DNA from: an uncultured delta proteobacterium
Lineage (GTDB): Bacteria > Myxococcota > Myxococcia > SLRQ01
DNA: 64,000 nt
Reading direction: 5' to 3'
Assembly: GCA_963727485.1 (NCBI GenBank)
Contig: CAVSGM010000003.1
Coordinates: 143,532 to 207,531 of the forward strand
Part shown: positions 23,599-54,077 of the stretch, piece after piece
How the letters are laid out: each line of letters starts with the position of its first letter
How positions within the stretch are numbered: position 1 is the first letter of the stretch
Made by a program: the position numbers and the translations under genes
The notes under the pieces: model-generated
Database searches by the model: none
What the model was told of the DNA's origin: nothing
The model's input: only the letters and a program-made list of their open reading frames with translations

Positions 23599-26150
23599 AT
23601 GCGACATCAGCTCGACAACGGACTGACGGTCCTGCTCCAGGAGAACCGGGCCGCCCGGGTGGTGGCGATGCAGGCCTGGGTCGACGCGGGCAGCGCCGAC
23701 GAGACCGACGCCGAGAGCGGGCTGGCCCACCTCCACGAGCACATGCTCTTCAAGGGCACCGCGCGCCGGGGGGTCGGGGAGATCGCCCGGGCGGTGGAGG
23801 CCGCCGGCGGCGACATCAACGCCTGGACCAGCTTCGACCAGACCGTCTACCACCTGGTGATGGCGAGCCGGGACCTGAACGTCGGCCTCGACATCCTCGC
23901 CGACGCCCTGATGCACTCGGCCTTCGACGCCGAAGAGCTCGCCCGGGAGCAGGAGGTGGTCCTCGAGGAGATCAAGCGCACCTACGACAGCCCCGGGCGC
24001 CGCGCCTCCCGGGCGATGTTCGACCTGGCGTTCACCACCCACCCCTACAAGAAGCCGGTGATCGGCACCGAGGAGACGGTGCGGGGCTTCTCCCGGGCCG
24101 ACGTGGTGGCCTTCTACCGCAAGCACTACCGCCCCGAGAACGTGACCCTGGTCTGCGTCGGCGACCTCGACCCCGACAAGACCCTGGCGGAGATCACGCG
24201 CCTGTTCGGCGACTGGCCGGTTCAGGGCGACGGGGCGCGGGAGCCCGTGCGCGTCGAGGAGCCCCCCAGGAGGGCCTGCGGATCCGGCGGCGCGAGGAGG
24301 ACCTCAAGGAGGTGTACCTCGACCTCGCCTGGCACGCCCCGGCCCTCTCGCACCCGGACGTCGCCGCCCTCGACGTGCTCACCCTGGCGCTCGGCCAGGG
24401 GGAGAGCTCGCGGCTGGTGCACCAGCTGCGGCGCCGGCAGCACCTGGCCAACGACGTGATGGCGTTTGCCTACACCCCCAAGGACCCGGGGCTGCTCCTG
24501 GTCTCCGCCCAGTGCGCCGCCGAGAAGACCGAGGCGGTCCTCGAGGGGATCCTCGACACCTGCTACCGCCTGCGCACCGAGCGCCTCCCCGAGGACGAGC
24601 TGGAGAAGGCCCGGAGCATCATCGAGGCCGACGCCATCTACCAGAAGGAGACGGTGCAGGGGCAGGCGCGCAAGCTGGGCTTCTTCGAGACGGTGGCCGG
24701 GGGCGTGGCCTTCGAGGACGCCTACTACCAGCGCATCCGCCAGGTCACCGCCGACGACGTGCGCCGGGTGGCGCGCACCTACCTCTCGACCGAGGGGCTC
24801 ACGGCCGTCGCCCTCTGCCCCGAGGGGACGGCGATCACCGAGGACCGGATCCGGGAGATCGCCGAGGAGGTCGAGCGGCGCCACGCCCCGGCCAAGCGCC
24901 GGGCCCGGCCCCGCAACGGGCAGATCGTCCCCATGGACCTCTCCAGCGGGGCGCGGCTCATCGTCCAGTCCGACCACCACGTGCCCCTGGTGGCGATGCG
25001 CGGGGTGCTCACCGGGGGCCTGCGCTTCGAGACCCCGGAGGTCAACGGGATCCACCTGCTCATGGCCCGGATGCTCACCTCGGGGACGCGGACCCGGACC
25101 GCCGCCGAGATCGCCCGGACGGTGGACGAGTGGGCGGCGGGGCTCTCGGGGGTCAGCGGGCGCAACTCGTTTGGCCTCGGCGCCGAGCTCCTCTCGCGCC
25201 ACCTGGAGAAGGGGCTCCAGCTGTTCACCGAGTGCCTCACCGGCGCCACCTACCCCGAGGACGAGCTGGACAAGGAGCGCAGCCAGCAGCTCGAGGAGCT
25301 GCGCACCCGGGAGGACGATCCCTCGGGGATGGCCTTCGACCTCTTCGCCGAGACCCGGTGGCGGGTGCACCCCTACCGGATGGACGTGCTGGGGACCCCC
25401 GAGTCCCTGGGGCGCCTCGACGCCGAGGCGCTTAGGCGGTGGCACCGCAGCCACTTCCCGGTGAGCCGCCTGCACCTGGGGATCGTCGGCGACGTGGATC
25501 CGGAGCGGGCGCGGGACCTGGCCGAGGAGGCCCTGGCGGCGGCGCCGGCGCCCGAGGCGATCGCGCTCCCCGAGGTCCCGGTGGAGCCCCCGGTCGACGG
25601 CCCGCGGCGCGCCGAGACCCACCTGGACAAGGCCCAGGCCCACATCGTCCTCGGCTACCCGGGCATCACCCTCGACGACCCGGACCGCTTCGCCCTCGAG
25701 GTGCTCTCCACGGTGCTCTCGGGCCAGGGGGGGCGGCTCTTCGTGGACCTGCGCGACCGGCGGTCGCTGGCCTACTCGGTCACCAGCTTCTCCCTCGAGG
25801 GCCTCGACCCCGGGTACTTCGCGGTCTACCTCGGGTGCTCGCCGGAGAAGGTCGACGAGGCGGTCGAGGGGATCCGGCGCGAGCTGATGGCGCTCACCGA
25901 GGCCCCGGTCGAGGCCGCCGAGCTCGACCGGGCCCGGCGCTACCTCATGGGCGCCCACGACATCGGGCTCCAGCGGGCCGGGAGCCGGGCGGCGGTGATG
26001 GCCTTCAACGACGCCTACGGGGTCGGCTACGACGCCCACCTGGGCTACGCCGACGCCCTCGCCGGGGTGGACGCGGAGGCGGTGCTGGAGCTGGCGCGGC
26101 GCCTCCTCGATCCGCAGCGCGAGATCCTGGCGATCGTCCGGCCCGGGTGA
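23599..26150 (+). CDS. M16-family (pitrilysin-like) zinc peptidase, two tandem M16 units (~850 aa); single-base deletion in a C-run at ~24260-24266
   Basis: MRHQLDNGLTVLLQEN...HLHEHMLFKGT carries the inverted HxxEH zinc motif. The second half (24312..26150 ORF) is also M16-like. The frame switches where gagccccccagg reads PPRRAC but the other frame continues PPQEGLRIRRREEDLKEVYLDLAW. Confidence 0.8.
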
Positions 26151-26965: not shown

Positions 26966-27058
26966 GGCCCGGGCTCGGCGCAGGTCCTGCGGGCATGGGG
27001 GAAATCACCCAGGTCTTGCCTCCGTGACGCCGGCCGGTCAAGCTGGGGCCGAAAGGGG

Positions 27059-27450
27059 ATGTCCATGGATCGACGCGAGTTCCTCCGCAGGGCCGGTCTC
27101 ATCGTGGTTGCAATCCCCGCCGGGGAGCTCCTGGCGGCGTGCGGGGGCGCAGGCACCGGCAACCAGGGCGCCCACGGGGCCGACGGTGGCACGGGGCAGA
27201 CCCAGACCTTCACCTCGACGCTGGTCGGCGGCCACACCCACGAGGTGACCATCGCGGTGGCGAACTTCGGCGTGCCCCCGGCCTCGGGCATCACCAAGAC
27301 CACCACCCAGACCAACAGCCACACCCACCAGGTGAGCCTGACCCAGGCCGAGCTGAAGGCGGTCCACAACGGCCAGACCGTGACCAAGGACACCACGGTC
27401 AACGCCGGGCACAAGCACAGCTTCGCCTTCGTGCTGAGCTCGATCCCCTC
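27059..27450 (+). CDS. TAT-signal lipoprotein with three HxH-containing repeats; 3' end uncertain (no in-frame stop before 27805)
   Basis: MSMDRREFLRRAGLIVVAIPAGELLAACGG has a twin-arginine motif plus lipobox. It is followed by GGHTHEVTI / NSHTHQVSL / AGHKHSFAF, each preceded by a Thr-rich strand. The frame then runs into low-information sequence overlapping the NusG paralogue. Confidence 0.4.
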
Positions 27451-28041
27451 ATGGGCGGTATGGGTGAAGCGAGGCGCGGATCCGCCGGTCCCGGCGAGGC
27501 CCCCGAGGGCGCGTGGCACGCGGTGGCGGTCCACGCCCGGCAGGAGAAGGCCGCGGCGGCGGCGCTGGCCGACCGGGGCCTCGAGGTGTTCCTCCCCACG
27601 CGCATCGAGCGCCGCCCCTGGAGCGACCGGGTCAAGAAGGTCGAGCTGGCGTTCTTCCCCGGGTATCTCTTCGTGCGCACCGCGTTGTCGGCGGCCCGCC
27701 GGGTGGAGATGCTCAAGGTCCGGCAGGTCTACGACCTGGTGGGCAAGATCCCCGGCGACGACCGCATCGCCCGGGCCATCCCCGACTGGGAGATCGAGAG
27801 CCTGAAGACGGTGGTCCGGTCGGCGCGCGAGGTGGACCCGGTGGAGGGGCTGGTGAAGGGGACGCCGGTGGTCATCGGCGCCGGGGGGCTCAAGGGCGCG
27901 CGGGGGGTGGTGCTCCAGGGGCCCGACGGGCAGCGGCGCCTGGTGGTGCAGGTGGAGCTGCTGGGCCGCGGGGTGCGGACGACGCTGTCGGCGGAGGATG
28001 TGCTGGTGGGGGACGAGGCGGCGGGCACCGTCCGCGGGTAG
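27451..28041 (+). CDS. NusG-family specialised paralogue (NGN + KOW; RfaH/UpxY/LoaP-like antiterminator candidate)
   Basis: AWHAVAVHARQEKAAAAALADRGLEVFLPTRIER...ELAFFPGYLFVR is the NGN domain. VKGTPVVIGAGGLKGARGVVLQ is the KOW motif. The stop lies 7 nt before the asnB-like start. Confidence 0.7.
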   Translation: MGGMGEARRGSAGPGEAPEGAWHAVAVHARQEKAAAAALADRGLEVFLPTRIERRPWSDRVKKVELAFFPGYLFVRTALSAARRVEMLKVRQVYDLVGKIPGDDRIARAIPDWEIESLKTVVRSAREVDPVEGLVKGTPVVIGAGGLKGARGVVLQGPDGQRRLVVQVELLGRGVRTTLSAEDVLVGDEAAGTVRG

Positions 28042-28048
28042 CGCGACC

Positions 28049-29931
28049 ATGTGTGGCATCAACGGGGCCTTTGCCTTCGGCGACTCGGCGCCGGAACCCT
28101 CGGTGGACGAGGCGGTGCGGGTGCGTGACGCCATGACCGCCCGGGGCCCCGATGGCGAGGGCCTGTGGCGGGATGCCGTCGGGCCGGGTGGTCCTCGGGC
28201 ACCGGCGCCTGGCGATCATCGGTCTCGGCGAGGGCGGGGCCCAGCCCATGGCGAGGGCCGACGGCTCGCTGGTGGTCACCTTCAACGGCGAGATCTACAA
28301 CTACCGGGCCCTGCGCGCCGAGCTCGAGGCCGAGGGCGTCGCCTTCCGCTCCGAGAGCGACACCGAGGTGCTGCTCCACCTCTACCGCCGCGACGGCGCC
28401 GAGCTGGTGCACCGGCTCCAGGGGATGTTCGCGTTCGGGATCTGGGACGCCCGGGCGCGGCGCCTGGTCCTCGCCCGGGACCCCCACGGGATCAAGCCGC
28501 TGTACTACGCCGAGGACGCGGGGACCTTGCGCTTCGCCTCGTCGGTGCGGGCGTTGGCGGCCGGCGGCGGGATCTCCCGGCGCGTGGACCCGGCGGGGGT
28601 GGTGGGGTTCCTCGCCTGGGGGGCGGTGCAGGAGCCGCGGACGATCCTGGCGGCGGTGCGGGCGTTGCCGGCGGGCTCGGTACTCACCGTGGATGCCGGG
28701 GGCGCGCCGCAGGTGCGCCGCTACTGGCGGCCGGTGGACGCCTACGCTGGACGGCGGGGCCGCCGACGTGGCGGGGGTGCGGGCGGCGCTCCGGGAGAGC
28801 GTGGGCCGGCACCTGGTCGCCGACGTGCCGGTGGGGATCCTCCTCTCGGCGGGCGTCGACTCCACCGCGCTCCTGGGGATGGCCGCCGAGGTCGCCGACC
28901 CGCCGCCCCACGCGGTGACCCTGGCCTTCGCCGAGTTCCGGGGGAAGCACGAGGACGAGGCGCCGCTCGCCGGCGAGGTGGCGCAAAGCTACGGCGCCGG
29001 CCACGACGTGGTGGAGATCTCCGGGGACCAGGTGCGCGCCGGGATCGACGCGTTCCTCGCGGCCATGGACCAGCCGACGGTGGACGGCCTGAACGTCTAC
29101 TGGGCCTCCCACGCGGTGCGGGCCGCCGGGCTCAAGGCGGCGATCTCGGGCCTCGGGGGCGACGAGCTCTTCGGCGGCTACCCGAGCTTCCGGCGCTATC
29201 CCAAGGTCAGGCAGGTGGCGGGCGTGCTGGGGCGGCTGCCGGCGCGGGGGCTGTGGGCGGCGCCGGTGGCGCGCCTCGCCGGGCCCCGGCGTCGCGACCG
29301 CCTCGCCGATCTCCTCGGGGGCGACGTGACCCCCGCGGGGACCTACCACGCCCTGCGCGGGCTCTTCGGCCTCGGGGAGCTCCGGGCGCTGTTGCCGCCG
29401 TCCCTGTGGGACGCGGCGGGGGGCGAGGTGGCGGCCCTGGGGCCGGTCACCGACGCGCTGAAGGGCACCGAGCGGCGGTCGCCATGGGTGCAGATCGCCG
29501 TGGCCGAGCAGAGCCTCTACATGCGCAACCAGCTCCTGCGCGATGCGGACTGGGCCTCGATGGGGCACAGCCTGGAGCTGCGGGTGCCGCTCGTGGATCG
29601 GACGCTCACCGAGGCGGTGGGGCCCTGGGCGGCGGCGCGGGACGGCCGGGCCGGGAAGCGGCCGCTGGCGGAGGCGCCCCGGCGTCCGCTGCCGGCGAAG
29701 ATCCTCAATCGGGAGAAGACCGGCTTCGGGATGCCGCTGCAGGACTGGGTCGGCGCCGACGCCCGGGCGGGGCGGGTGCCACCGCTGCCCGGGTGGCTGC
29801 GGTGGACCGGGGGAGACGCGGCGCGGGATCGGCTGGTGGCGCGGACGGCAACGGCCGAGGTCCACTGGGCGCGGCTGTGGGCGCTCACGGTGCTGGCGCA
29901 GTACGCCGAGGCGGTGGGCGTCGAGGGGTAA
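28049..29931 (+). CDS. Asparagine synthase (glutamine-hydrolysing)-like amidotransferase (AsnB/WbpS/exosortase-associated type); two single-base frameshifts (~28180 and ~28750)
   Basis: MCGINGAFAFGD... N-terminal Cys nucleophile; GRVVLGHRRLAIIGL; SAGVDSTALLGMAAE PP-loop. It is spread over three listed ORFs (27998.., 28152.., 28165..). Confidence 0.8.
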
Positions 29932-29990
29932 GGGGTCGGGGGGGTGACCCGCGTCGTGCCCAGGGGCTGGGCGATGGTAGCCTGCCGGGC

Positions 29991-30971
29991 ATGAGCCGCA
30001 TCGCTGCCTCGATCCTCCTCGTGATGCTCATGGTGCCCGGGGCCGCCCGGGCCGCCGGGAAGACGCCCAAGTGCCACAAGCCCTCCAGCGCCCTGGAGGC
30101 CAAGGCGGTGAAGGTCGCCGAGCTCGGCTGGGCCTCCCACGACCCCCACGACCGGGCGGTGGCGCTCGGGATCCTGGCGCGGGTCCGAGGGGCCTGCGAG
30201 GCCCGGCGCATCGCCGAGGGGCTTCACGCGAAGAACCCGGAGCTGAGGTCGGCGGCGGCGCTGGCGGCGGCGGAGGTGGGCGTGGAGAAGGCCGCGGCGA
30301 AGCAGGCGGCCACCTCGCTTTTGGGCACGGAGAGCGGCTACCTCCGGGTCCGCGCGGCGCTCACGCTCCTGCGCCTCGGGGACGACGCCGGGCGTAAGGC
30401 CCTGGTGCACCTGGCCCTCGGGGCGCCGAAGACGCCCAAGGGCCCGCCCACGGTGGGGTTCGCGGTGGCGACCTACGCGGCGATGCGGCTGTCGGCCGAC
30501 GCGAAGCGGGCCGGGCGCGGGGCGCTGATGGCGCTGCTCGGCGGCCAGCCCGACGTGGACCTCATGGCCCGGGCGGGGCTGGTGCGTCTCGGCGACAAGG
30601 ACCAGCTGGCGCGGCTGCGGGCGGCGGCGGCGGCGGGGCAGCCGACGGCGATCCGGCTCCTGGGCGAGGTGGGCTCCAAGGCGGACGTGGCGGCGATCCG
30701 CAAGGGCATGGGCCGCTCGCCCCAGGCGCACCAGGCGGCGCTCCAGGGGCTGGCGGCGCTCGGGGACACGGGGCCGCTGATGGCCGAGATGGCCGGGGTG
30801 GATCTCGCCCACGTGAACCACAAGAGCATGCTGCTCCTGGCCACGGCGTCGCGGGCGGGGGCCAAGGCGCTGCTGCCGCGGTTCGAGGGGCTGCTCGAGA
30901 ACGGGCGGCTGCCCATGCGCCTCTACGCGGCGTACCTGGTGGTCCGGGCGGATCACCCGGGGCTGCCGTAG
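29991..30971 (+). CDS. Secreted HEAT/PBS-lyase-like repeat protein
   Basis: Signal peptide MSRIAASILLVMLMVPGAARA, then repeated ALGxLxxxEA/ARxAAAxALG modules. Confidence 0.5.
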   Translation: MSRIAASILLVMLMVPGAARAAGKTPKCHKPSSALEAKAVKVAELGWASHDPHDRAVALGILARVRGACEARRIAEGLHAKNPELRSAAALAAAEVGVEKAAAKQAATSLLGTESGYLRVRAALTLLRLGDDAGRKALVHLALGAPKTPKGPPTVGFAVATYAAMRLSADAKRAGRGALMALLGGQPDVDLMARAGLVRLGDKDQLARLRAAAAAGQPTAIRLLGEVGSKADVAAIRKGMGRSPQAHQAALQGLAALGDTGPLMAEMAGVDLAHVNHKSMLLLATASRAGAKALLPRFEGLLENGRLPMRLYAAYLVVRADHPGLP

Positions 30972-30980
30972 ACTCGGGGC

Positions 30981-31881
30981 GTGCCCGAGCTCCCCGACGT
31001 CACGGTGTACGTGGAGGCCCTCGCCGAGCGGGTGGTCGGGGCGCCGCTGGAACGGGTGCGCCTCTTGAGCCCCTTCGTGCTGCGGACGGTGGACCCAGCC
31101 GTCGGCGAGGTGGAGGGCCGGGTGGTGCGCGGCGTCCGGCGGCTCGGCAAGCGGGTGGTGCTCGAGCTCGCCGGGGACGTGTACCTGGCGATCCACCTGA
31201 TGATCGCCGGGCGGCTGAAGTGGCTGGAGCCCGGGGCGCCGGTTCCGAAGAAGGCGGGGCTGGCGGCCTTCGACTTCCCCTCGGGGACCTTGGTGCTCAC
31301 GGAGGCCGGGTCCAAGCGGCGGGCGGCGCTGCACCTGGTGCGCGGGGCCGAGGGGCTCGCCGAGCTGGACCGGGGTGGGGTGGAGCCCCTGGAGGTGGAC
31401 CTCGACGGGCTTCCGGGCGGCGCTGACCCGGGAGGTCCACACGCTCAAGAGGTCGCTCACCGATCCGAGGATCTTCTCGGGCATCGGCAACGCCTACTCC
31501 GACGAGATCCTCCACCGGGCGGGACTCTCGCCGGCGAAGCGCACCGACCAGATGGACGACGCGGAGGTCGCGGCGCTCTTCGAGGCGACGCGGGCGGTGC
31601 TGCGGGGGTGGACCGAGCGGCTGCGCGCCGAGGCCGGCGGGGGGTTCCCGGGGAAGGTCACCGCGTTTCGCGAGGGGATGGCGGTGCACGGGCGGTACCG
31701 GAAGCCGTGCCCGGTGTGCGGCACGGAGATCCAGCGCATCCGCTACGCCGACAACGAGACCAACTACTGCCCGCGGTGCCAGACCGGGGGGCGGCTCTTG
31801 TCGGACCGGGGGCTCAAGCGGCTCCTGCGCGAGGACTGGCCGAAGACCATCGAGGCGCTGGAGGCGCGGCGGGGGCGGTAG
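30981..31881 (+). CDS. mutM: Formamidopyrimidine-DNA glycosylase (Fpg/MutM/Nei family); one single-base insertion near 31408
   Basis: [14 protein letters not shown] has the N-terminal Pro nucleophile. The C-terminal half carries the H2TH motif and zinc finger ([31 protein letters not shown]). The halves sit in two frames joined at ...[15 protein letters not shown]. Confidence 0.8.
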
Positions 31882-32022: not shown

Positions 32023-32591
32023 TCATGCTTCGATACCGAGGGCCTGGTCGAGGCGCTTCTCGAGGGCGCCAAAGGTAGCATCGAAGCGGTCCCGACGCAG
32101 GCCCGCGAGGACGGCGTTCACCGCGGCGAGGAAGCGCGCGCGCTCGGCCTCGGCGGGGTCGAGGAGCTCTCGGGCGGCGAGCCAGCTCGCCACCTCGTGC
32201 CAGCTCCAGAGGCGCGACTGGTCGAGCACGGCGACGGGGGCCGGGAACTCCCCAGCGCGCCGCTCGCCGGCGATCCAGAGGCGGATGCCCTCGCGGGTTC
32301 GGCCGGTGCGCCGGGCGATGTCGGCGGCGGTAACGAGGTCGTCGGGGAGTCACACGGACGACCCTCGCGCCGAGGCCCGCGGCGGCGACGTCCCGGATGG
32401 CGGAGAGCACGGCGACCTCCAGGCCGTCGGCCTCGCGGTCGAAGTCCAGGGTGGCGGTGCCCGCGCGGATGGTGAGCAGGGCGTCGTCGCACCCGGCTTC
32501 GAAGAGGGCGTCCTCGACCCGGCCGTCGTCGGGCGAGAGGCCGTCGACGACCAGGGAGAAGTGGAAGACGCTGGTGTCGGTGCTGGCCATG
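32023..32591 (-). CDS. Hypothetical protein with C-terminal HTH-like segment; one single-base frameshift near 32343
   Basis: MASTDTSVFHFSLVVDGLSPDDGRVEDALFEAG... then ...DLVTAADIARRTGRTREGIRLWIAGER... after a frame change in a C-run (gtgactccccgac). Confidence 0.35.
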
Positions 32592-32768
32592 GTGCCCTCG
32601 AAGTGCGGTTTCGGGTGCCTCGGTCTCGATGTGGGCAGCCTGGTGTGGATGTTGACCATTGTCAACAGTCGACGGTGGGGCGCGCCGGGCGCAGGTTGCG
32701 ACCTGCCGTCCCGCTCGTCTACGCTGGGCAGGCGCCCGAGGTGGGCGCAGAGGTGGTCAAGATGAAGC

Positions 32769-33701
32769 ATGCAGTCGCGGTCGTCCTCGGTGCTCCTCCT
32801 CGCGCTCCCGGGCGCGGCCCACGCCGCCGAGAGCGGCCTCACGCGGGCGGCCGCAGCCCTGGCCCAGGCCCAGCGGAGCTTCCCGGACGCCGCGGCGTCG
32901 TGGGCGTGGTCGGCGAAGAGCGCCCAGGCCGCGCCGAACGCCGCGGGGCTGGTGGCGCTGGGCCTGGTGCGCGGCTACGGGCGGACCGGCGACGCCTCGG
33001 CGCTGGCGGCGGCGCGGCGGTGGGGCGAGGCGCGGCTCGCGGACCTGGCCGCCTGGCGGCCCTTGTACGACCCGGACGTCGAGGCCCTGGCGGCGCTGGG
33101 GCGCGCCACGGGGGACGCCAACTACACCGAGGCGGCGCGCACGGCCTTCGACCGGCGCTGGGGCGGCGCCACCGGCGACGAGGCCCTGGCGCGCCTGAAG
33201 ATGATCCGCGGCGCCAACCTGGGCTACGTGGGCTACGACGCGGCGCTGGCCATCCGGGCGGCGCGGGCGGTGGGCCACGGGGCCTTCGCGGCGGCGCTGG
33301 CGCGGGCGGTGGTCTCGGCGCCGGGCCTGGTGCCGGCGATCACCGACCCGCGGGGGATCGGCGTGACCGCCCGGGCGGCGCTGGTGGGCGCGGTGACCGG
33401 CCTCGACGACCCGGCGGTGGTCGCGGCGGCGGGCCGGTGGGCCGAGGCCCTGGTGGCCGCCCAGGGGCGCGACGGGAGCTGGTCGTTCCACAACACCCAG
33501 GCGACGGCCTACGCGGTGGCGGCCCTGGCGACGCGCACCCCGGCGGCGGCGGCCAAGGGGCGCGCCTGGCTCACGAAGACCCAGCGCCCCGACGGCACCT
33601 GGACCACCTTCGACGACGGGATGCCCGCGGCGTTCTCCGGGCCGGTGGTCCACGAGGTCTCGGCGGAGGCGCTGCTGGCGCTCGCGGACACCCAGCCCTA
33701 G
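32769..33701 (+). CDS. Secreted hypothetical protein, possible alpha/alpha-toroid (prenyltransferase/terpene-cyclase-like) repeats
   Basis: Signal peptide MQSRSSSVLLLALPGAAHA. Repeated ...DGSW.../...DGTW... motifs, Ala-rich. Confidence 0.4.
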   Translation: MQSRSSSVLLLALPGAAHAAESGLTRAAAALAQAQRSFPDAAASWAWSAKSAQAAPNAAGLVALGLVRGYGRTGDASALAAARRWGEARLADLAAWRPLYDPDVEALAALGRATGDANYTEAARTAFDRRWGGATGDEALARLKMIRGANLGYVGYDAALAIRAARAVGHGAFAAALARAVVSAPGLVPAITDPRGIGVTARAALVGAVTGLDDPAVVAAAGRWAEALVAAQGRDGSWSFHNTQATAYAVAALATRTPAAAAKGRAWLTKTQRPDGTWTTFDDGMPAAFSGPVVHEVSAEALLALADTQP

Positions 33702-33714
33702 AGGTCCAAGGGCG

Positions 33715-34839
33715 GTGAGCGGTCGTCGAGAGCGGGTCCGGGCCCGGGGGCGTCGTCGTCGCCGGCGGCTGGCGGTGGCGCACGTGGTCTCCGTGGCGGT
33801 GCACCTGCTGCCGCTGGTGGCGCTGGTGGGGTTGGAGTGGCCCGATCTGAGCGCGGAGCCCGAGGTGCCCATGCGGCGGGTGGTCGAGGTGCGGCTGGAG
33901 GCGCAGCGGCCGCCCAAGGACGTGATGTTCCAGGCCGAGCACGACTCGGACGTGAAGCAGGCGACGACGGCGGTGGCGAGTGGGGCGGCGATGCGGACGC
34001 GGGGTGGGGTGGTGACCCAGCGGCCGGCGCCTCGGTCGCGGGCGGCGGCCCGGGCGGCGAGGCAGCTTCGCCCGCGGCGGCGTGGGGCGGTGCGGCGTTC
34101 GGCAGCCGCGGAGGCGCCGCATTCGGTCGCCAGGCAGCCCCACCGGGCCGCCCCTCGGCCGGCAGAGGCGGTGCTGGCGTCTGCGCACGTCGCCGCACAT
34201 GGGCGCACCCTGGCGCTGGCCCACGCGGCGGTGGACCTGACGCCCGCGCCCGCGCCGGCGCGGCCTTCGGTGTCCGCGCCGGCCGCTCGTGACGCGGTTG
34301 CGCATGCCGCGGCGGCCGAGGTGGATCGCCCCCCTCGGGACGCCGACACAGACGCCGCCCCCGACGTCGAGCTCGCCGACGCCCAGGTGCCCCAGCCGCC
34401 GAGCCCCTACGTGCCCTCCTCGCCGGCCGCTGAGGCCCCAAGCCAGCGCGCCGAGGCGGCACCCGCGGCCCACATTCCGGGCCTGCGGCCGGCGATGCGC
34501 ACCCAGGTCCCCGCCCGCGCCATGCTCCTGGCCGCCTACCTGCGCCGCGTGCGCGACCGGATCCGGCACGAGTGGCACCCGAAGCTGGTCCTCGGTGGGG
34601 GAAACACGGTGTGGCGCCCGGTGGAGGTGCAGGTGTACATGGCGGTCGCCGCCGACGGCAGCCTCGAGACCGTCCGCGTGGCCCGGAGCTGCGGGAACGC
34701 CGGCATCGACGGGCAGGCGCTGGCGGCGGTGAAGCGCGCCGAACCGTTCCTCCCGCCCCCGGCGGCACTGCTCCACGGCGGGGTGGTGGGCTTCACCTTC
34801 GGGGCCATGGCCCTGGGGGCTGGCGCCGGGGTTCCGTAG
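33715..34839 (+). CDS. TonB-family energy-transducer protein
   Basis: N-terminal TM (VAHVVSVAVHLLPLVALV), Pro/Ala-rich spacer, C-terminal TonB domain (YLRRVRDRIRHEWHP...GNAGIDGQALAAVKRAEPFLPPP). Confidence 0.65.
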   Translation: MSGRRERVRARGRRRRRRLAVAHVVSVAVHLLPLVALVGLEWPDLSAEPEVPMRRVVEVRLEAQRPPKDVMFQAEHDSDVKQATTAVASGAAMRTRGGVVTQRPAPRSRAAARAARQLRPRRRGAVRRSAAAEAPHSVARQPHRAAPRPAEAVLASAHVAAHGRTLALAHAAVDLTPAPAPARPSVSAPAARDAVAHAAAAEVDRPPRDADTDAAPDVELADAQVPQPPSPYVPSSPAAEAPSQRAEAAPAAHIPGLRPAMRTQVPARAMLLAAYLRRVRDRIRHEWHPKLVLGGGNTVWRPVEVQVYMAVAADGSLETVRVARSCGNAGIDGQALAAVKRAEPFLPPPAALLHGGVVGFTFGAMALGAGAGVP

Positions 34840-34902
34840 CACCCGGGCGGGCGGTGCCCCGGGCTGGACTCGGCCCCGGCGCCTCAGGGTAGTCTCGGGC
34901 AG

Positions 34903-35824
34903 ATGTCCACGGACCCCACCAACGGCCGGCTGACCCACCTGCGCCAGCTCGAGGCGGAGAGCATCCAGATCCTCCGCGAGGCGGCCGCCGAGTTCGAGAA
35001 CCCGGTGATGCTCTACAGCATCGGCAAGGACTCCTCGGTGCTGGTCCGCCTGGCCCAGAAGGCCTTCTACCCGGGCCCGCTGCCGTTCCCGCTTTTGCAT
35101 ATTGACACCACCTTCAAGTTCCGGGAGATGATCAGCTTCCGGGACCGGTTCACCCAGGAGCAGGGCCTGCGCCTGTTGGTCCACACCAACCCGGACGGCC
35201 TGAAGCTGGGAATGAATCCCTTCGACTTCGGGTCTGCCAAGCACACGCAGGTGATGAAGACCGATGCGCTGCGCCAGGCCCTCGACCACTGGCGCTTCGA
35301 CTGCGCCTTCGGTGGGGCCCGGCGGGACGAGGAGCGCAGCCGGGCCAAAGAGCGGGTATTCTCCTTCCGCGATCGGTTTCACCAGTGGGACCCGAAGCGC
35401 CAGCGGCCTGAGCTGTGGAACCTCTACAACGGCCGCATCAACCCGGGCGAGAGCGTCCGCGTCTTCCCCATCAGCAACTGGACCGAGCTCGACGTCTGGC
35501 TCTACATCCACGTGGAGAAGATCCCGCGTGGTGCCGCTCTACTTCGCCAAGAAGCGCCCGGTGGTCGAGCGCCAGGGCCAGCTCCTCATGGTCGACGACG
35601 ACCGGCTGCCCCTCGAGGACGGCGAGGAGCCGATGATGAAGAAGGTCCGGTTCCGGACGCTCGGGTGCTACCCGCTGACCGCCGGCGTCGAGAGCGAGGC
35701 GGACACGGTGCCCAAGATCCTTCGGGAGATGCTCGAGTCGCGCTTGAGCGAGCGGCAGGGCCGCCTCATCGACACCGACGAGGACGCGTCGATGGAGAAG
35801 AAGAAGCGCGAGGGGTACTTCTGA
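34903..35824 (+). CDS. cysD: Sulfate adenylyltransferase subunit 2; one single-base insertion near 35524
   Basis: [35 protein letters not shown] is the PAPS-reductase-like fold. The C-terminal [20 protein letters not shown]...KKKREGYF is in a second frame. Confidence 0.85.
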
Positions 35825-35836
35825 TGCGCGCGGTGC

Positions 35837-37676
35837 TTGGATGAGCGAGCAGGGTCGCACATCGAGGACATCGACGCCTGGCTGGCGGACTACCAGGAGA
35901 AGGAGCTCCTGCGGTTCGTGGCGGTGGGGTCGGTGGATGACGGCAAGTCGACGCTCATCGGCCGCCTGCTGCACGACACCGGGATGGTCTACGAGGACCA
36001 GCTCGAGGCGGCGCAGCGGGCGAGCCGGATGCCCGACGGGAGCCTCGACTTCTCGCTGCTGACCGACGGGCTGGCCGCCGAGCGCGAGCAGGGCATCACC
36101 ATCGACGTCGCGTACCGGTACTTCTCCACCGAGCAGGCGCAAGTTCATCATCGCCGATACGCCGGGGCACGTGCAGTACACCCGGAACATGGTGACCGGC
36201 GCGTCCACCGCGGACGTGGCGCTGATCCTCATCGACGCGCGGCTCGGGGTGCTGGAGCAGAGCCGGCGGCACGCGACCATCGCCTCGCTGCTGGGGATCC
36301 CGCACCTGGCCGTGTGCGTGAACAAGATGGACCTGGTGAGCTGGGACCAGGCGGTCTTCGAGCGCATCCGGGAGGACTTCAGCGCCTTCGCGGCGGACCT
36401 GGGGTTCAAGGACACCGCGTTCATCCCCGTGAGTGCGGTACGCGGCTCCAACATCGTCGAGCCGAGCACGCGGATGCCCTGGTACGACGGCCAGACGGTG
36501 CTCGGGTACCTGGAGCGCGTGCCGGTTGGCGCCGACCGGAATCTGGAAGACCTGCGGTTCCCGGTGCAGTACGTGATCCGGCCCGACCTGAACTACCGCG
36601 GCTACGCCGGCGAGGTGGTGAGCGGGACCGCGAAGGTGGGGCAGGAGGTGATGGTCCTCCCCGGCGGGCAGAAGAGCCGGGTGAAGGCCATCGACACCTT
36701 CGATGGGCCGCTGCGCGAGGCCGAGACCCCGCGGTCCGTGGTGGTGCGCCTCGAGGACGAGGTCGACGTGAGCCGCGGCGACATGCTCGTGGATGCAGGG
36801 CGGATCCCCCGGGTGCGCCGGCGCTTCGAGGCCCACCTGGTGTGGATGAGCGAGCGTCCCCTGGACCTCCAGAAGACCTACCTGCTCAAGCACACCACCC
36901 AGACCGTGCGGGCGCAGATCGGTCGGGTGGCGTGGAAGAAGGACATGGAGACGCTGGCCGAGGTGCCCGGCCGAGGGCCTCGCGCTCAACGACATCGGGC
37001 GGGTGGAGGTGACCTGCCACCGGGCGTTCTACTTCGACCCCTACCGGGTGAACCGGGCGACCGGCGCGTTCATCGTCATCGACTCGCTGACCAACGACAC
37101 CGTTGGCGCCGGGATGATCGTCGACGGTGCGGCGGAGCAGGGCCTCGACGAGGTCGTCCAGGAGCTCCATGCCGGGTCGGCGCTGGTGCCCAAGAGCCAG
37201 GTGAGCCCCCGGGAGCGGTTCGAGCGGCTCGGGCAGAAGGGCTGCGTGGTGTGGCTCACCGGGCTGCCGGGCTCGGGGAAGTGGCCGCTGGCCTACGCCC
37301 TGGAGCGGCGCCTCTTCGACATGGGGCACACCGCCACGGTGGTGGTCCCCACCGGCGAGGACCTCCGGACGATGATCAGCGCCGCCAAGGCCGGCGCCGA
37401 CGCGGGGCTCATCACCATCTGCGCCTTCGCCAGCTACGGCCGGGCCGACCGGGCGGCGGTGCGCGAGCGGGTGGGGGCCGAGCGCTTCGTCCACGTGTAC
37501 GTGAACACCGACCCGGCGCTGTGCCGGGAGCGGCGGCCCGACGCGAGCTTCGAGGGCTTCGAGGTGCCCGCAGCGCCCGGAGGTGACGGTGGCGCTCGAC
37601 GAGATGGACCTCGACGGAGCCATCGAGGCGATCCTCGAGGACCTGGGGCGGCGCGGGCAGTTCCGGCCACGCTAGC
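35837..37676 (+). CDS. cysNC: Bifunctional sulfate adenylyltransferase subunit 1 / adenylylsulfate kinase (CysN/CysC fusion); three single-base frameshifts (~36138, ~36975, ~37577)
   Basis: GTPase motifs GSVDDGKST and DTPGH; an EF-Tu-like beta-barrel region; and a C-terminal APS-kinase P-loop ([11 protein letters not shown]). It is split over ORFs 35837.., 36171.. and 37003... Confidence 0.85.
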
Positions 37677-37732
37677 TTTGCAGCTACGGTTCCGACACTG
37701 CGTTCGGTGGGAACGCGGGGTGCCCGGGACGG

Positions 37733-37774
37733 TGCAGACTGTTTCGGTCTTGAACGCAGGTTTCGTCTGCAAGT
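37733..37774. promoter_or_regulatory. Inverted repeat TGCAGAC-N28-GTCTGCA with internal GTTTCGGTCT/GTTTCGTCT half-repeats, upstream of the MarR-type regulator
   Basis: tgcagactgtttcggtcttgaacgcaggtttcgtctgca lies in the lower-GC intergenic region between cysNC and the regulator. Confidence 0.3.
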
Positions 37775-37880
37775 CGAAGAAGGACTCCGGGCGCCGCCCG
37801 GCCCTGCTGAAGGCCGCCAGCCCGCCCTCGCAGTCCCGCCCGCCGGTCCAGTTCTGGGACCGAACCGGGGCGGAGTGTGA

Positions 37881-38435
37881 ATGACGCTGGGCGCTTCACT
37901 CGCCAACCGAGGGGATGGATACCATCGTGACGAGCTCCGGCTCCTCGAGGCCCTCCATGAGTCCCCCGAGCAGAGTCAGCGGGAGCTCGCCAAGCAGGCA
38001 GGCCTCTCGCTCAGCAAGGCCCACTTGGTGCTCAAGCGGCTCGCCCAGCGGGGGATGGTGACGGTGAAGACCACACCGGCCAGCGGTCACCGCCTCGGCT
38101 ACCGGTACCAGCTTACCCCACGCGGGCACGCCCGAAAGGCGCTGCTTCGCTACCGTCTGCTCCAGAGAACGGCGGAGGAGTACCAGGACGCCGTGCGGCG
38201 CCTGAAGACGCGCGTGCGGGAGGCTTGGCGCCAGCACAAGCCGGCGTCGCGACGGGGTCCGCCGGCAATCCTTCTTGTGGGGTCGGGGGCCCTCTCCGAC
38301 CTGGTAAGGGACGTGGTGCAGCGCGCGGGGATGCCGGTGGTGGACGACGCCGCGCGGGCCGACCTGGCCATCGTCCTCGACCCCCGGGAGGCGGATAGTG
38401 TGGACTCCCGTCTGGCGAAGGTGGGGCTCGGATGA
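37881..38435 (+). CDS. MarR-family winged-helix regulator of the EPS-associated type
   Basis: [45 protein letters not shown]... The MarR wHTH pattern and the position at the head of a polysaccharide gene block suggest an EPS-associated MarR subfamily. Confidence 0.6.
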
Positions 38436-38454
38436 GCATCACCGAGCGGGGATG

Positions 38455-39500
38455 GAGATGAACCCCTCGTCCTTGTGGCGATCGGCGCCCGCAGTGGCGA
38501 GGGTCTACCGCGCACCCTCCCTCGGCGCCGCACTGGCAGTGGCGCCTGAGCCGGCGCTGAAGACCTTCGCTCGCGAGGAGGGGCTCGCGGCGCTCCTTGG
38601 GCGCCGGTGGGGCGTGTGGGGGAACGATGTCCAGGCGAGCGTGGCCAACGCGCTGGTGGCCGAGCAGGCAACCCGCCGGGCAATCTGTGCCCTGGAGGAC
38701 GAAGGCATCCCGGTGGTGGTCCTCAAGGGTGTGGTGGCCGCGCGCCTCGGCTGGACGAACCGTTCCTGCGACCCCAGTCGGACATCGATCTGCTGGTGCT
38801 TCGTGCGGACGTGCGTCGCAGCATGGCGGTGCTCCACGACGGGGGCCTGACCACCACCGCTCCCCAGGAGCCCGACCCGTGGCTGCACCACCGGACCCTG
38901 CGGAGCCGTTCCGGTCCGCCCATCGAGCTGCACTATGCGCTCACCAACGACCTGGCGCTGACCCTGGACACGGCGTCGCTCCTCGAGGCCCGGGGGCACC
39001 TGGGAGAGGGGCCGTCGCGACTGCCCACCCTAGGGTTGGTGGAGACCTTCGTGTACCAGGTCCTCCACGCGGCGGTGCACCTCTGCGCGCGTCTGGCCTG
39101 GCTGGTGGACCTCGTCGGCCTGCTCGAGGCCGTTACCGCGGTTTGGGACCAAGTGCTGGCGACCGCCAACGCCTGGGGTGCCACCCTGGCCCTGCAGACG
39201 ACCCTCGGGGCTCTGGACACGCTGGTGGGTGCCGGGCACGTGCCGCCTGGCCGGTCCAGCGTACGACTCGGCGCCGGTCGGGTGGCGGCGCTGGAGGCCT
39301 ACGTGCTGGCACGGCGCCGTCTGCCGGGGTGGCTGTCCTGGCAGGTCGACCGGGCCGCGCGGCTCGGGCTCTCCGACCGGCTCGCCGGGCTGCTGCTGGG
39401 ATCTGCGAAGGCGCGAGGCAGCGCCTCGAGACGAGGCCAGGAGGCGCTGACCTGGGTTCGCGCCCGCGGCCAGGGCCCCCGCCAGGGCTGGCCAGGGTGA
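38455..39500 (+). CDS. PF14907-type uncharacterised nucleotidyltransferase; one single-base deletion near 38752
   Basis: ...ALEDEGIPVVVLKGVVAARLG... then in the adjacent frame ...DEPFLRPQSDIDLLVLRADVRRSMAVLHDGGL..., matching the family core. Confidence 0.55.
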
Positions 39501-39522
39501 GCAGGTCCCGAACGGAGCCCGA

Positions 39523-40878
39523 GTGACGGTCGCCGAGCACCGGCAGGGCCCTCCGGGGGGCCTCTCGATCCGTTCGCAATTTCGTGTGGGTTGCCGCCGG
39601 AAACCTAATCTACGGCGGCACCCAGTGGGGCCTGCTGGTTGCGATCGCGCGTGCGTTGAGCCCGGCGGCGGTCGGCCGCTATGCCCTCGGCCTCGCGTTC
39701 ACCGCACCGGTGTTTCTCTGCGGTCTTCAGCTGCGTGAGATCCTTGCGACCGACGCCAAGCGTGAGTACCCGTTTGCGGTCTACGCCCACCTCCGCTGGA
39801 CCTCGGTGCTCGCTTCGATAGTCCTCTCCTGGCTCCTGGTCCTCGCCCTCGGTTACGACCTCCAGATGCAGACCCTGGTGGTCCTCCTGGGGATCTCGAA
39901 GGCCGTGGGGTCGTTGAGCGAACTCCGGTATGGGCTCTTTCAGCTGCGGGAGCGCATGGGCCTCTCGTCCGCTCGCCGATACTTCGAGGCGTTCTCGACC
40001 TGGCCGCGGTGGTGGCCTCGGTGGTCGTGCTCCACAGCCTCGAGGTCGCCGTGGCCGGGCTGGCGGCCGCCTGGCTCATCGTCTACTTGGCCCATGACCT
40101 CCCCATCGCTCGCACTCTTCTCCATGCCGGCGAGGCTCCCGCCGCCGGCGCCGGTACGCGCCGTTCCAGGCTCTCGGACGCCCGGCCGCTTCTCCTGCGG
40201 GCGCTTCCCATGGGATTCGTGGTTCTGCTCATCTCGTTGAACGTGAGCGTCCCGCGGTACGCCATCGAGCACTGGTGGAATGCCCATGTGCTCGGTGTGT
40301 TCGCCGCCATGAACTACGTGTTCGTGGCGTTCGGGGGCGTGGTGATCGCGCTGGCCCAGGCTGTGACCCCGCGCTTGGCCCATATCATTCGGAGCGGCGA
40401 CCTGCCGAGTTCCGCAGGCTCCTGCTCCAGTCGCTGGGGGTTGGGGTGGCGGCCGGCGTCGGCACGGTGCTCGGTGTCGCGCTCCTCGGCCGGCCGGTGC
40501 TCAAGCTGGTGTACGGACCGGCCTTCGCTGGCCACCTCGACGTGTTTCTGGTCCTGGCCGTCGCGGGCGGCCTCGGATACGCTCGCACCTTTCTCGGGCA
40601 CGCGGTCACCGCGGCGCGCTGGTTCGCCATCCAGCCGCTGGTGGCCGTCTCCGGCCTCACCACCACCGTGGTTCTGGCGTGGCTGCTGGTCCCGCGCGGG
40701 GGCATGATGGGCGCCGCCCTGGCGGTGCTCGGAGGGTCTGTGGTGCAGACCATGGGCATGGGCAGTGTCGCCTCTGGGTATCTCGGGCGCTCTCCCGGGC
40801 ATCGATCGCGCAGCCCCGCCCCGAGGCATCGTGACCACCTCGGGTCCGGCCAGCGTCCGGATGCGGAAGGAACGATGA
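39523..40878 (+). CDS. wzx: Wzx-type polysaccharide flippase (MOP/PST family); at least three frameshifts, the first in a G6 run at ~39556
   Basis: After correction the N-terminus reads MTVAEHRQGPPGASRSVRNFVWVAAGNLIYGGTQWGLLVAIARALSPAAVGRYALGLAF. About 12 TM segments are spread over ORFs 39584.., 40009.. and 40275.. (...LLGISKAVGSLSELRYGLFQ...). Confidence 0.7.
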
Positions 40879-41780
40879 AACAGAGGATCAAGCAGCTCTA
40901 CTTCGGCCTCAGCGGCGCCGTGAGGTGGTGCGGGTGTCAATCCCCGCCGAGCCCGAGGGCCAGGCACGGCCCATCTTCATCGTCGGGCTCTATCGCTCAG
41001 GCACCACCTTGCTCCGGTACATGCTCGACAGCCACCCGAACCTCGCCTGTCCCGCCGAGACAGACTTCCTGGCCACCCTGGCTCCGCTGGTCAATCAGGA
41101 GCTTTACCGGACTGGGCTCGAGGCCATGGGATTCGAAAGCGACCACGTCCGGCTGAGACTGCGGCGGTTCATCTCCTACTTTTACGAGAACTATGCCCAG
41201 GCTCGGGGGAAGCAGCGGTGGGTGGACAAGACACCCGCCTATGTCGACCACCTGCCGTTCATCCGGTCGGTGTTCCCGCAGGCCCAGATGTTGCTGCTCT
41301 ATCGGCACCCCTTCGACCAGATCGAGTCGCACACCAGTGGTGGCGCCCGACTGCACTGGTCGTCGAGGGCTACCAGGAGCCCGGGGACACGGTCCGGATG
41401 GCGGCGGCGCGCTACTGGGCGAAGAAGGCGCAGAATATCCTGGACTTCGAGGCCCAGGACGCCGGGTGCCGTCGGCTGCGGGACGAAGACCTCACGGCGG
41501 ATCCCGAGGCGACGCTGGGGCCCCTGCTGGAGTGGCTGGGCGAGCCCTGGGATCCGACGTCCTCGACTTTAGCCGGGTTCGACACTCGGCGGGCCGAGAA
41601 GACAACAAAATCAAGACGACGACCGGTATCGTGGCGAGCGTGGGTAACTGGAGCAGCTGGCCCGCGGAGGAAGTGGCCGCCGTGAGGGAGATGGTGGCGG
41701 GGCCGATGAGCGCCCTTGGCTACGACAGCGAGCTGGTCGCCGCTTCTCGCGGTGGCGCACGCCGAGGACGAGGCCTCTGG
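40875..41780 (+). CDS. Sulfotransferase (PF13469 Sulfotransfer_3-like, PAPS-dependent); about three frameshifts; 3' end uncertain
   Basis: MKQRIKQLYFGLSGAV... then PIFIVGLYRSGTTLLRYMLDSHPNLACPAETDF is the 5'-PSB loop; ...RYWAKKAQNILDF... The start overlaps the wzx stop (ATGA). Confidence 0.65.
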
Positions 41781-42144
41781 ACACGAAGAACACATCCCGA
41801 TTCTCGTACTGGGCAACGCTCGTCGAGGTCTCGTATCCGGGCCGTGGCTCGTCGTTCTGCTCGCCTTCCCTGGCCCAGGGGGTCGGGGTGCGCCTGCTCA
41901 CCGGATTCCTCACGGCATCCGGTCTCTGGTACCTCGTCGGATGGTACGTCCTCACCCGTGAGCTGCTGCGGCCCTACATTCTCTTCTGGGGATCGTCCTG
42001 GCCTTCAACGCGGGCCAGGCGGTGCTCTTCGTCCTGGGGGTCTCGCGCCATGGCTTTCTCTTTCACAGTTCTCCGAGGGTCTAACCCTTGAGACCCTGAC
42101 GCTGGTGGACAATTCGCGGCCCTGCACCTCGGAGCGCTCCTGGC

Positions 42145-43230: not shown

Positions 43231-43340
43231 AGCAGACGCCATTCGGGCCGGCTACCTCGGGCGGAGACGCGATCCCTGACGGCGGCGTCCGCCGCGAACC
43301 GCCGAACCTCCTTCATCCCTCCTCTCCGGCTCCAACTCAC

Positions 43341-44459: not shown

Positions 44460-44508
44460 CGCGGGTCTCCGTCCGCGTAGTCCGGACGCATTCCACCAAT
44501 AGGATCCC

Positions 44509-46851: not shown

Positions 46852-46866
46852 CGGGAGACGGGTCGC

Positions 46867-47440: not shown

Positions 47441-47443
47441 ACG

Positions 47444-48098: not shown

Positions 48099-48163
48099 CC
48101 GGCCGGGCACGCCAGGAGGCCGCGCGAACCGCGAATGCGGGCGGAGCGAGGGAGCCTAGAGGT

Positions 48164-49330
<1,167 letters not shown>

Positions 49331-49404
49331 CCAGCTCGCTGCATCGGCAACGCCGCTTTCCGACCCTCCCCGGTACTGGGCGTGGTCGCCACCTAGGTCA
49401 AATC

Positions 49405-54065: not shown

Positions 54066-54077
54066 GTTCCGGGCACC

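Follow-up and report, generated by a model that had tools for sequence, protein, structure and literature searches.

Specialised NusG paralogues encoded beside envelope-polysaccharide genes are already well documented. The subject here is a gene that almost certainly encodes such a paralogue, designated NusG_SP, together with an ops-like element in the leader of a putative polysaccharide operon downstream of it. Both lie in a 64,000-nucleotide (nt) stretch of DNA, referred to as the window, from an uncultured delta proteobacterium of the Myxococcota (GenBank assembly GCA_963727485.1, contig CAVSGM010000003.1, positions 143,532 to 207,531 of the forward strand). In Bacteroides, UpxY joins RNA polymerase that has paused at opsX sites within capsule leaders, and an upstream nascent-RNA hairpin assists this recruitment (Saba et al. 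2024; PMC11685472). Class-1 opsX sites carry a non-template hairpin, 5'-YGCGNAGCR, as compared to GCGGTAGC for E. coli ops (PMC11685472). TaA is described in later papers as controlling the TA operon (Paitan 1999 as cited in PMC7593976 and PMC7819879). For the window, the reading that NusG_SP is an operon-specific UpxY-family NusG paralogue acting on the operon at 37.9–55.0 kb via a site in its leader is, taken as a whole, reasonably probable.

The NusG_SP reading frame runs on the plus strand from an ATG at 27451 to a TAG at 28039–28041 and is intact, in a window whose G+C content is 73%. An identical protein, encoded on a 790-kb contig, is recorded in NCBI/ENA, and the call of this open reading frame (ORF) is therefore not idiosyncratic. 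With 196 aa the product exceeds E. coli NusG (181 aa) in length, so the earlier note's description of it as short did not hold. Family assignment rests on the scores of curated hidden Markov models (HMMs). The best-scoring family was UpxY (NCBIfam NF033644), with 91.3 bits against a cut-off of 100 that was not reached. LoaP (NCBIfam NF033641) was the second-best model at 58.2 bits (cut-off 125), and RfaH (TIGR01955) and housekeeping nusG (TIGR00922) gave 46.4 bits (cut-off 144.5) and 31.1 bits (cut-off 135.7), respectively. UpxY was also the best-scoring model for all 42 aligned relatives, and those tested from Acidobacteriota, Nitrospirota and Omnitrophota scored above its cut-off (104–143 bits). 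A search for homologues gave 174, mostly from Myxococcota or 'Deltaproteobacteria' metagenome-assembled genomes (MAGs), some of them named 'UpxY family transcription antiterminator'. An exhaustive profile search returned 16,692 representatives at E <= 1e-3, 5,903 at E <= 1e-10 and 78 at E <= 1e-30; these counts indicate a small close clade within a very large family.

Both domains named in the earlier note were found. The NGN domain (residues 21–118; 27511–27804, plus strand) matched Pfam PF02357 at 55.5 bits (cut-off 22.2) and contains a WSDR motif and an LFPGYLFV motif, the latter aligning with FFPGYVLV in NusG and LFPNYLFV in RfaH. A surface of this type is the RNA polymerase contact used by NusG and RfaH. 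In the AlphaFold (AF2) model, which was built on 42 homologues and has a mean predicted local distance difference test (pLDDT) score of 88, a linker helix spans residues 112–127 and the KOW domain (residues ~137–186; 27859–28008, plus strand) is predicted to form a beta-barrel of five strands (139–142, 151–156, 163–170, 173–180 and 184–186). The NusG_SP family profile matched the isolated KOW chains 2kvq, 6duq and 1nz9 at ~1e-4; the Pfam KOW model gave no match in NusG_SP at E <= 0.01. The predicted NGN fold matches the NGN structures of NusG and RfaH, and Foldseek and PDB profile searches returned full-length NusG and activated RfaH.

Given this shared two-domain fold, NusG_SP might be the genome's housekeeping NusG, merely divergent, and its best PDB sequence matches are indeed NusG chains (E about 5e-13). 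However, there is no UpxY-type entry among the PDB matches, so that the top NusG matches reflect which structures have been solved. The nusG model score is far below its cut-off, and for all 42 relatives nusG gave a lower score than the UpxY, LoaP and RfaH models did. Neither secE nor rplK was found among the neighbours of the gene, which is flanked by PilZ-like genes, a small protein with a twin-arginine translocation (Tat) signal and AsnB, and its relatives lie in polysaccharide loci. A housekeeping role is extremely improbable, as the earlier note had held. NusG_SP is almost certainly, from its sequence, a UpxY-type specialised NusG paralogue, from a branch of that family present in Myxococcota.

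Gene context and element counts were assessed in a set of 87 related loci, designated by L numbers. Of the 87, 50 have a Wzc homologue no more than 10 kb away. In Myxococcota MAGs, the relatives of NusG_SP are found in polysaccharide loci of the Wza/Wzc type, which are often sulfated. The gene order is Wza-Wzc-NusG_SP-DegT-ABC-GT4 in L001 and L098, Wza-Wzc-NusG_SP in L086 and Wza-NusG_SP in L085. In other loci the ops-like element described below follows the paralogue: Wza-NusG_SP-element-MarR-betaCASP-Wzc-CysC-CitMHS-CysD-CysN-CysQ (L003), NusG_SP-element-MarR-Ugd (L096), NTP_transf_5-NusG_SP-element-MarR (L097) and NusG_SP-element-CysD (L007). A small conserved partner gene was absent from the gene maps of the NusG_SP relatives.

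Comparison of the MarR leader of the window with the NusG_SP-to-MarR spacers of L003 and L086 gave two common blocks, the first reading GTTTCGGTMTTGAACG and the second consisting of a hairpin and then GGGACCGAAAGGGGCGGAG. Among 8-mers, GGCGGTAG and its neighbours were the most enriched upstream of NusG-like genes and GGCGGAGC the most enriched downstream. The element consists of an RNA hairpin, with GGGACY as its 3' arm, and an ops-like GGCGG(T)AGC after it. Scanned as the composite pattern G[GT][GA]A[CG]-N6-9-GGCGG(T)AG, it occurs within 450 nt of a NusG-like gene, on the same strand, in 37 of the 87 loci. The density of the pattern is 0.48 per kb near the gene as compared to 0.007 per kb elsewhere (19 matches in 2.65 Mb), a 66-fold enrichment.

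The element takes different forms in different phyla. The acidobacterial version lies 60–200 nt upstream of the gene and reads ATGGGACTCAAAGGGCGGTAGCTTGTCC; its form GGCGGTAGCTTG is identical to E. coli ops GGCGGTAGCGTG at 11 of 12 positions. The Nitrospirota and Myxococcota versions have no T and stand 115–350 nt downstream of the gene. The Myxococcota form has a GCG-N-AGC core, GCG-G-AGC in general and GCG-A-AGC in L097, and GCGGAGC fits the Bacteroides opsX consensus YGCGNAGCR. Proteins beside both the T-containing and the T-less forms score above the UpxY cut-off and below the RfaH cut-off. Residue differences between the partners of the two forms (for example at RfaH-aligned positions 57, 68 and 73) were set aside, being confounded with phylum. 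GGCGG is what stays constant over the three phyla, and the hairpin sequence does not. The element is covered by no Rfam family; the best match of the acidobacterial form was JUMPstart, which at 16.9 bits was below the gathering score of 35. Rfam searches of seven related loci returned only a tRNA; the whole window gave nothing at gathering thresholds and the leader of the window nothing meaningful at E <= 10.

A single-sequence search with the MarR protein of the window matched only itself, and MarR homologues were recruited with a three-sequence profile; these are named 'MarR family EPS-associated transcriptional regulator'. In all four loci fetched independently via MarR homologues the element stands just upstream of MarR (E 2e-8 to 2e-6), as it does in L003 and L086. 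Genes other than MarR, namely CysD, Ugd and the NusG-like gene, also have it ahead of them, and in the other loci it lies 20–146 nt from the next start codon. A metagenome scan with GGGACYGAMAKGGGCGGAGCC gave seven stretches; the paralogue was adjacent in two, and the other five were seemingly unrelated or coding. In the searchable literature, no description was found of ops-like sites for polysaccharide loci of Acidobacteria, Nitrospirota or Myxococcota, which is not proof of novelty. Within the limits of that literature, the hairpin and ops-like element beside NusG-like genes is the new part of this work.

Ten Myxococcota relatives have a strong copy of the element. The hairpin is common to ten Myxococcota leaders, with the compensatory variants AGTCC/GGACT in L086 and GTTAC/GTAAC in Nitrospirota. 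Pairing was assessed by an anchored pair count, MAFFT having put the 5' arms in two registers. Compensatory changes were observed from C-G to U-A, from G-C to A-U and from G-C to C-G, and folding of the upstream segments is more favourable than that of shuffled controls (mean z -0.89, p = 2.5e-4). Two other readings of the element were discarded. A mini-ORF, ATG GGA CTC AAA GGG CGG TAG, is broken in frame by the T-less variants and its ATG is not kept. Sigma-54 and extracytoplasmic function (ECF) promoter readings would put the invariant bases in the spacer.

In the window, the composite pattern matches at 37856–37875, within the 205-nt leader (37676–37880) that separates cysNC, whose TAG stop was read from the sequence at 37673–37675, from the MarR gene. 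RNA folding gives a candidate nascent-RNA pause hairpin at 37844–37862 (plus strand; CGGTCC, loop AGTTCTG, GGACCG). It is followed at 37867–37879 (plus strand) by a diverged ops-like element, GGGGCGGAGTGTG as compared to GGGGCGGAGCC in relatives, which is identified by the composite pattern, a Myxococcota HMM and its orthologous position. The copy occupies the same position as those in L003, L086 and L094–L097, and it lies in one of the three leaders that the earlier note had proposed to search (37.68–37.88 kb). Because its sequence score is weak, the case for the window copy is a positional one, drawn from the orthologous MarR leader. The segment 37844–37879 may be the NusG_SP recruitment site, and the balance of the evidence tilts slightly towards this assignment.

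Other candidate sites in the window were considered. The canonical ops sequence GGCGGTAGnnTG is in no leader of the window. An ops-like GGCGGTAG overlapping the fpg stop codon lies on the plus strand at 31874–31881, and not at 31871–31878 as the earlier note had it; that note was right to reject the match. It has neither the hairpin nor the TGGGAC context, and was rejected as a recruitment site in favour of a chance or codon-driven match. The window holds eight copies of GGCGGTAG as compared to 2.2 expected, none with the hairpin or TGGGAC context. Seven of the eight are antisense to coding strands, where they are accounted for by CTACCGCC, which arises from Tyr-Arg codons.

By analogy with UpxY/opsX in Bacteroides and RfaH/ops in E. 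coli, RNA polymerase would pause at the ops-like site at 37867–37879, helped by the nascent hairpin at 37844–37862. The NGN domain would then read the exposed non-template strand (GCG-N-AGC) and displace housekeeping NusG. The modified polymerase would resist pausing and termination through the 17-kb operon at 37881–55010, which runs from MarR to a UDP-glucuronate decarboxylase-like gene (UXS) and whose product would be a sulfated, Wzx/Wzy-dependent polysaccharide. Since NusG_SP is encoded 9.8 kb upstream in another transcription unit, it would act in trans. A similar arrangement is seen in L098/L095, in which the distance from regulator to site is 6.1 kb and two minus-strand genes intervene, as in the window. 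On this analogy NusG_SP is likely to be a dedicated processivity factor for the polysaccharide operon. The earlier note's suggestion of a dedicated antitermination factor stands as far as the UpxY scores, the Wza/Wzc loci, the 66-fold enrichment of the element and the leader copy can carry it; its positional argument does not.

A number of observations weigh against this account. The UpxY score of NusG_SP is itself below the model's cut-off, and the ORFs scanned include no UpxZ partner, the downstream gene being AsnB and the upstream small ORF unmatched. The window copy of the element is diverged, with GAACCGGGG in place of the GAAAGGGG (GAAA-GGGG) of relatives and GCGGAGT in place of GCGGAGC. 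A generic profile built from 40 element instances did not detect it, and Myxococcota-only profiles run over the whole window ranked it first or second with only E = 0.14–0.15; scaled to the 205-nt leader, this E is roughly 2e-4 by our own arithmetic. A -10-like CTACCAA present in relatives is absent from the leader. The GGAG of the window copy, 5 nt before the MarR ATG, could be merely a ribosome-binding site. Six of the first 12 Myxococcota loci had no element within 10 kb. All loci were picked for a NusG-like or MarR gene, which places polysaccharide loci lacking the paralogue outside the sample. Finally, at least 20 frame breaks lie between 28 and 51 kb, about one per kb, and the operon may be decayed or its sequence unreliable at the single-base level.

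Some of these points would also fit a leader element that is a promoter, a MarR operator or a ribosome-binding structure and merely co-occurs with polysaccharide operons. The GGAG before MarR, the resemblance of GAAAGGGG to a Shine-Dalgarno sequence and the way in which the loci were picked all favour this explanation. However, the distance of 20–146 nt to the next start codon in other loci speaks against it, and the element is not confined to MarR leaders, as it stands before CysD, Ugd and the NusG-like gene too. Its most conserved bases would be spacer in any promoter reading, and the T indel shifts the spacing. The ops match at 11 of 12 positions and JUMPstart as best Rfam match also argue for an ops-like site. 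An element of another kind is improbable, though it deserves some weight.

A second alternative concerns how the leader would be recognized. NusG_SP may act in the manner of LoaP, with a basic KOW domain recognizing the leader RNA hairpin and suppressing intrinsic terminators, and with no reading of non-template DNA at a pause. LoaP ranks second among the models, the window keeps the hairpin best of all parts of the element, its ops-like core having diverged, and a LoaP-like KOW charge occurs in some UpxY classes (Saba et al., PMC11685472). Yet what is invariant over three phyla is GGCGG and not the hairpin sequence, the element is close to ops/opsX, and 58 bits is less than half of the LoaP cut-off of 125. 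A LoaP-like mode of action is unlikely on this evidence, and recruitment of NusG_SP at a paused polymerase is the reading retained here.

The MarR leader holds a second shared motif. The promoter- or operator-like GTTTCGGTCTTGAACG lies at 37741–37756 (plus strand); allowing <=3 mismatches, the window has two matches, this one exact and the other with three mismatches, as compared to 0.19 expected. L003, L086 and L094 have the motif in identical or nearly identical form, and the counterpart in relatives is TTGAAC-N17-CTACCAA, of which the window keeps the first part. In the MarR leaders of L003 (10576), L086 (11289), L094 (5805) and L095–L097, GTTTCnnnnTTGAAC-N17-CTACCAA stands ~100–160 nt upstream of the ops-like element. 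This block could be a promoter or a MarR operator. A sigma-70 consensus scan of 26.0–38.5 kb found no promoter, and terminators occurred there at chance level only. At 10559–11161 of L086, T-rich repeated blocks of ~180 nt separate the NusG paralogue from the MarR leader in an otherwise GC-rich locus.

The putative target operon is an unbroken plus-strand run of about 17 kb (37881–55010), delimited by Pfam searches of translated pieces, a frame plot and a reading of the ORFs at 46.7–48.4 kb. It begins with the gene for the exopolysaccharide-associated MarR-family regulator (37881–38435, plus strand; HTH_24 and MarR_2 domains). NTP_transf_5, Wzx-like, sulfotransferase, Wzy and glycosyltransferase (GT4) genes follow, and after these come PglC-like (sugar transferase), PglD-like (acetyltransferase), PglE-like (DegT), CapD/Polysacc_synt_2, Wzc-like, CBS and UDP-glucuronate decarboxylase-like genes. 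The Wzx-like gene (which had no Pfam hit) and the PglC-like, PglD-like and decarboxylase-like genes were assigned by reading of the translations, the piece with the decarboxylase-like gene being outside the Pfam scan; the other genes were assigned by Pfam. Directly upstream are cysD and cysN/cysC for the synthesis of 3'-phosphoadenosine-5'-phosphosulfate (34858–37675, plus strand; PAPS_reduct, GTP_EFTU and APS_kinase domains), frameshifted as assembled. The segment 34858–41580 holds cysD, cysN/cysC and a Sulfotransfer_3 gene inside the cluster, and relatives add CysQ and a CitMHS/SLC13-type transporter. The gene content points to a cluster that makes a sulfated exopolysaccharide, which seems to recur in these Myxococcota loci. 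Beyond the operon, on the minus strand, two Ugd-like genes lie side by side at 55069–55771 and 56705–58075, one an intact UDP-glucose 6-dehydrogenase gene and the other a fragmentary, frame-broken copy.

NusG_SP belongs to a different unit, made up of the small Tat protein, NusG_SP, AsnB, a HEAT lipoprotein and Fpg. It does not head the polysaccharide operon, and its candidate leader lies far downstream. The earlier note's placing of it at the head of the polysaccharide region does not agree with core genes that start at 34858 (cysD) and 37881 (MarR), 7–10 kb away, nor with an AsnB adjacency that is not conserved. The AsnB-family glutamine amidotransferase gene (28049–29931, plus strand; GATase_7 and Asn_synthase domains) does begin, with its ATG at 28049, 7 nt after the NusG_SP ORF, as had been stated. 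It has two frameshifts as assembled and is split over three frames, with pieces by tblastn at 28049–28192 (frame 2), 28176–28727 (frame 3) and 28777–29904 (frame 1). The generic asparagine-synthase model is passed only with the piece scores summed; the pieces are below the passing score of the exosortase-type model, and the exosortase label given in the earlier note was not upheld. A HEAT-repeat lipoprotein gene (29976–30968, plus strand) and fpg (30972–31881, plus strand) complete the unit.

With AsnB only 7 nt away and same-strand genes tightly packed up to 31881, NusG_SP may instead act in cis on its own unit, and not on the MarR operon. In the distant Omnitrophota locus L064 (10001–12366), an AsnB homologue likewise follows the NusG paralogue by ~100 nt, with identities of 51% and 35% to the two large pieces of the window AsnB. 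A weak copy of the hairpin half of the element is also found upstream of the unit, at 27029–27058, where CCGGTCaagCTGGGGCCGAAAGGGG resembles CGGTCCtccCTGGGACCGAAAGGGG in L003 (nhmmer E = 4–10). This segment runs into the ATG of the small ORF, though, and is without the GCG-N-AGC core. L064 is the sole other case of this adjacency among the 87 loci, and none of the 12 Myxococcota loci has it. At about 4.8 kb the unit is short, and one of its genes serves DNA repair.

The syntenic locus L084 also argues against action in cis. It shares with the window an M16 gene, two PilZ genes and, further on, NusG_SP, and there SQHop-like and TonB-like genes come directly after NusG_SP. The window encodes an SQHop-cyclase-like repeat protein and a TonB_2-domain protein (32766–34839, plus strand) with 48% and 37% identity to L084 10851–13126 by tblastn. 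Because NusG_SP directly precedes these genes in L084, the AsnB-HEAT-Fpg block and the two minus-strand genes after it look inserted in the window. Action in cis on this unit is, on balance, quite unlikely, and the MarR operon is preferred as the target. The two minus-strand genes, located by the ORF map at 32026–32824 between fpg and the SQHop-like gene, had no Pfam match and interrupt what the earlier note had described as a same-strand series of more than 25 kb. They overlap, one has a helix-turn-helix-like N-terminus, and they may be a small inserted module.

The small ORF upstream of NusG_SP (27059–27450, plus strand) had no Pfam or NCBIfam match. Its product has a Tat signal (MDRREFLRRAG) and a lipobox (LAAC), and an HxH repeat occurs in it three times (GGHTHEV, NSHTHQV and AGHKHSF). 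There is no in-frame stop before 27805, and its 3' end is probably frameshifted. In related loci, a beta-CASP/RMMBL ribonuclease-like gene recurs beside NusG_SP and MarR (L003 11311–12654, L004 6634–7977, L086 14082–15359 and L094 993–2342); no copy was seen in the window.

Frame-broken genes in the window (23608–51400) include those for the M16 peptidase, AsnB, Fpg, CysNC, Wzx, the GT4 glycosyltransferases and the PglC- and PglD-like proteins, with examples of breaks at 24261–24267, 28176–28192, 28727–28777, 31387–31442, ~37600, 39958–40440 and 46850–48100. If these frameshifts were real, the locus would be decaying and NusG_SP an orphan regulator with no functional target. The number of breaks would fit such decay, as would the degenerate ops-like copy and -10-like motif. 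Breaks also occur, however, in conserved housekeeping-type genes outside the cluster (M16 peptidase at ~24.26 kb, fpg, cysNC), and the NusG_SP ORF is unbroken and can be aligned with its relatives over its full length. Among related public MAGs, several were assembled from long reads, and the pattern fits indel errors. The likeliest cause of the frame breaks is uncorrected long-read indels in a high-GC MAG, the alternative being real pseudogenisation; decay of the locus with loss of the target is unlikely. Should the frameshifts vanish on polishing and the leader read GAAAGGGGCGGAGCC, the assignment of the NusG_SP site would be strengthened.

The NusG_SP gene itself is unsurprising; it is the ops-like module shared across phyla that is of interest. 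UpxY-family paralogues beyond the Bacteroidota (Acidobacteriota, Nitrospirota, Myxococcota and probably others) might share one inherited recruitment module, a nascent-RNA hairpin with GGGACY at its end and then a GCG-N(1-2)-AGC non-template hairpin, the regulator having become unlinked from its site in this Myxococcota lineage and acting in trans on a MarR-headed sulfated-polysaccharide operon. We put this forward tentatively, the arguments for it falling a little short of those on the other side. The acidobacterial version of the element is essentially the ops of E. coli RfaH. If the proposal is true, ops recognition predates the split between RfaH and UpxY or was exchanged between them, and is not a late proteobacterial invention. 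The element also has a bearing on the evolution of ops recognition. Its presence beside UpxY-family genes in three phyla provides a sequence handle with which regulons could be predicted for thousands of uncharacterised NusG paralogues. For the window, a generic "NusG-like" call is replaced by a testable model comprising a factor (27451–28041), a candidate site (37844–37879) and a 17-kb operon.

Among described systems, UpxY of Bacteroides (NF033644) is the best-scoring model for NusG_SP. Both have NGN and KOW domains with a WSDR/LFPGY core, and UpxY is dedicated to polysaccharide operons, as NusG_SP would be. The element of the Myxococcota relatives has the architecture of opsX, an upstream nascent-RNA hairpin and a GCG-N-AGC non-template hairpin (PMC11685472), which the diverged candidate site in the window may share. 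NusG_SP differs in coming from the Myxococcota and not the Bacteroidota, and in scoring 91.3 bits where the model asks for 100. It is not first in its target operon; its gene lies 9.8 kb upstream and shares a unit with those for AsnB, HEAT and Fpg, whereas in acidobacterial relatives the element lies upstream of the gene. The window has no UpxZ partner among its scanned ORFs and no invertible promoter or paralogous copies, and the first gene after the candidate site is a MarR-type regulator.

In the case of RfaH, with its ops/JUMPstart sites in E. coli and other Proteobacteria, the likeness lies in action in trans from a separate gene, as proposed for NusG_SP, in an ops-like site in the 5' leader and in long envelope-polysaccharide operons as targets. 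In contrast to the autoinhibitory alpha-hairpin of RfaH, the KOW domain of NusG_SP is predicted by AF2 to be a beta-barrel, a prediction that is compatible with a second state. The Myxococcota site is without the T that RfaH reads (GCGGAGC as compared to GCGGTAGC) and is preceded by an RNA hairpin. LoaP, the antiterminator of Bacillus antibiotic clusters, is likewise a specialised NusG paralogue with a leader hairpin involved, but the targets here would be polysaccharide and not polyketide genes, and the conserved DNA core is ops-like. TaA of the Myxococcus xanthus TA-antibiotic operon, set beside NusG_SP by description only, is a NusG paralogue from the same phylum serving one long operon; unlike NusG_SP, it is encoded within the polyketide operon. 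Housekeeping NusG has the same fold and RNA-polymerase-binding motif as NusG_SP but a different genomic context, whereas the NusG_SP clade tracks polysaccharide loci.

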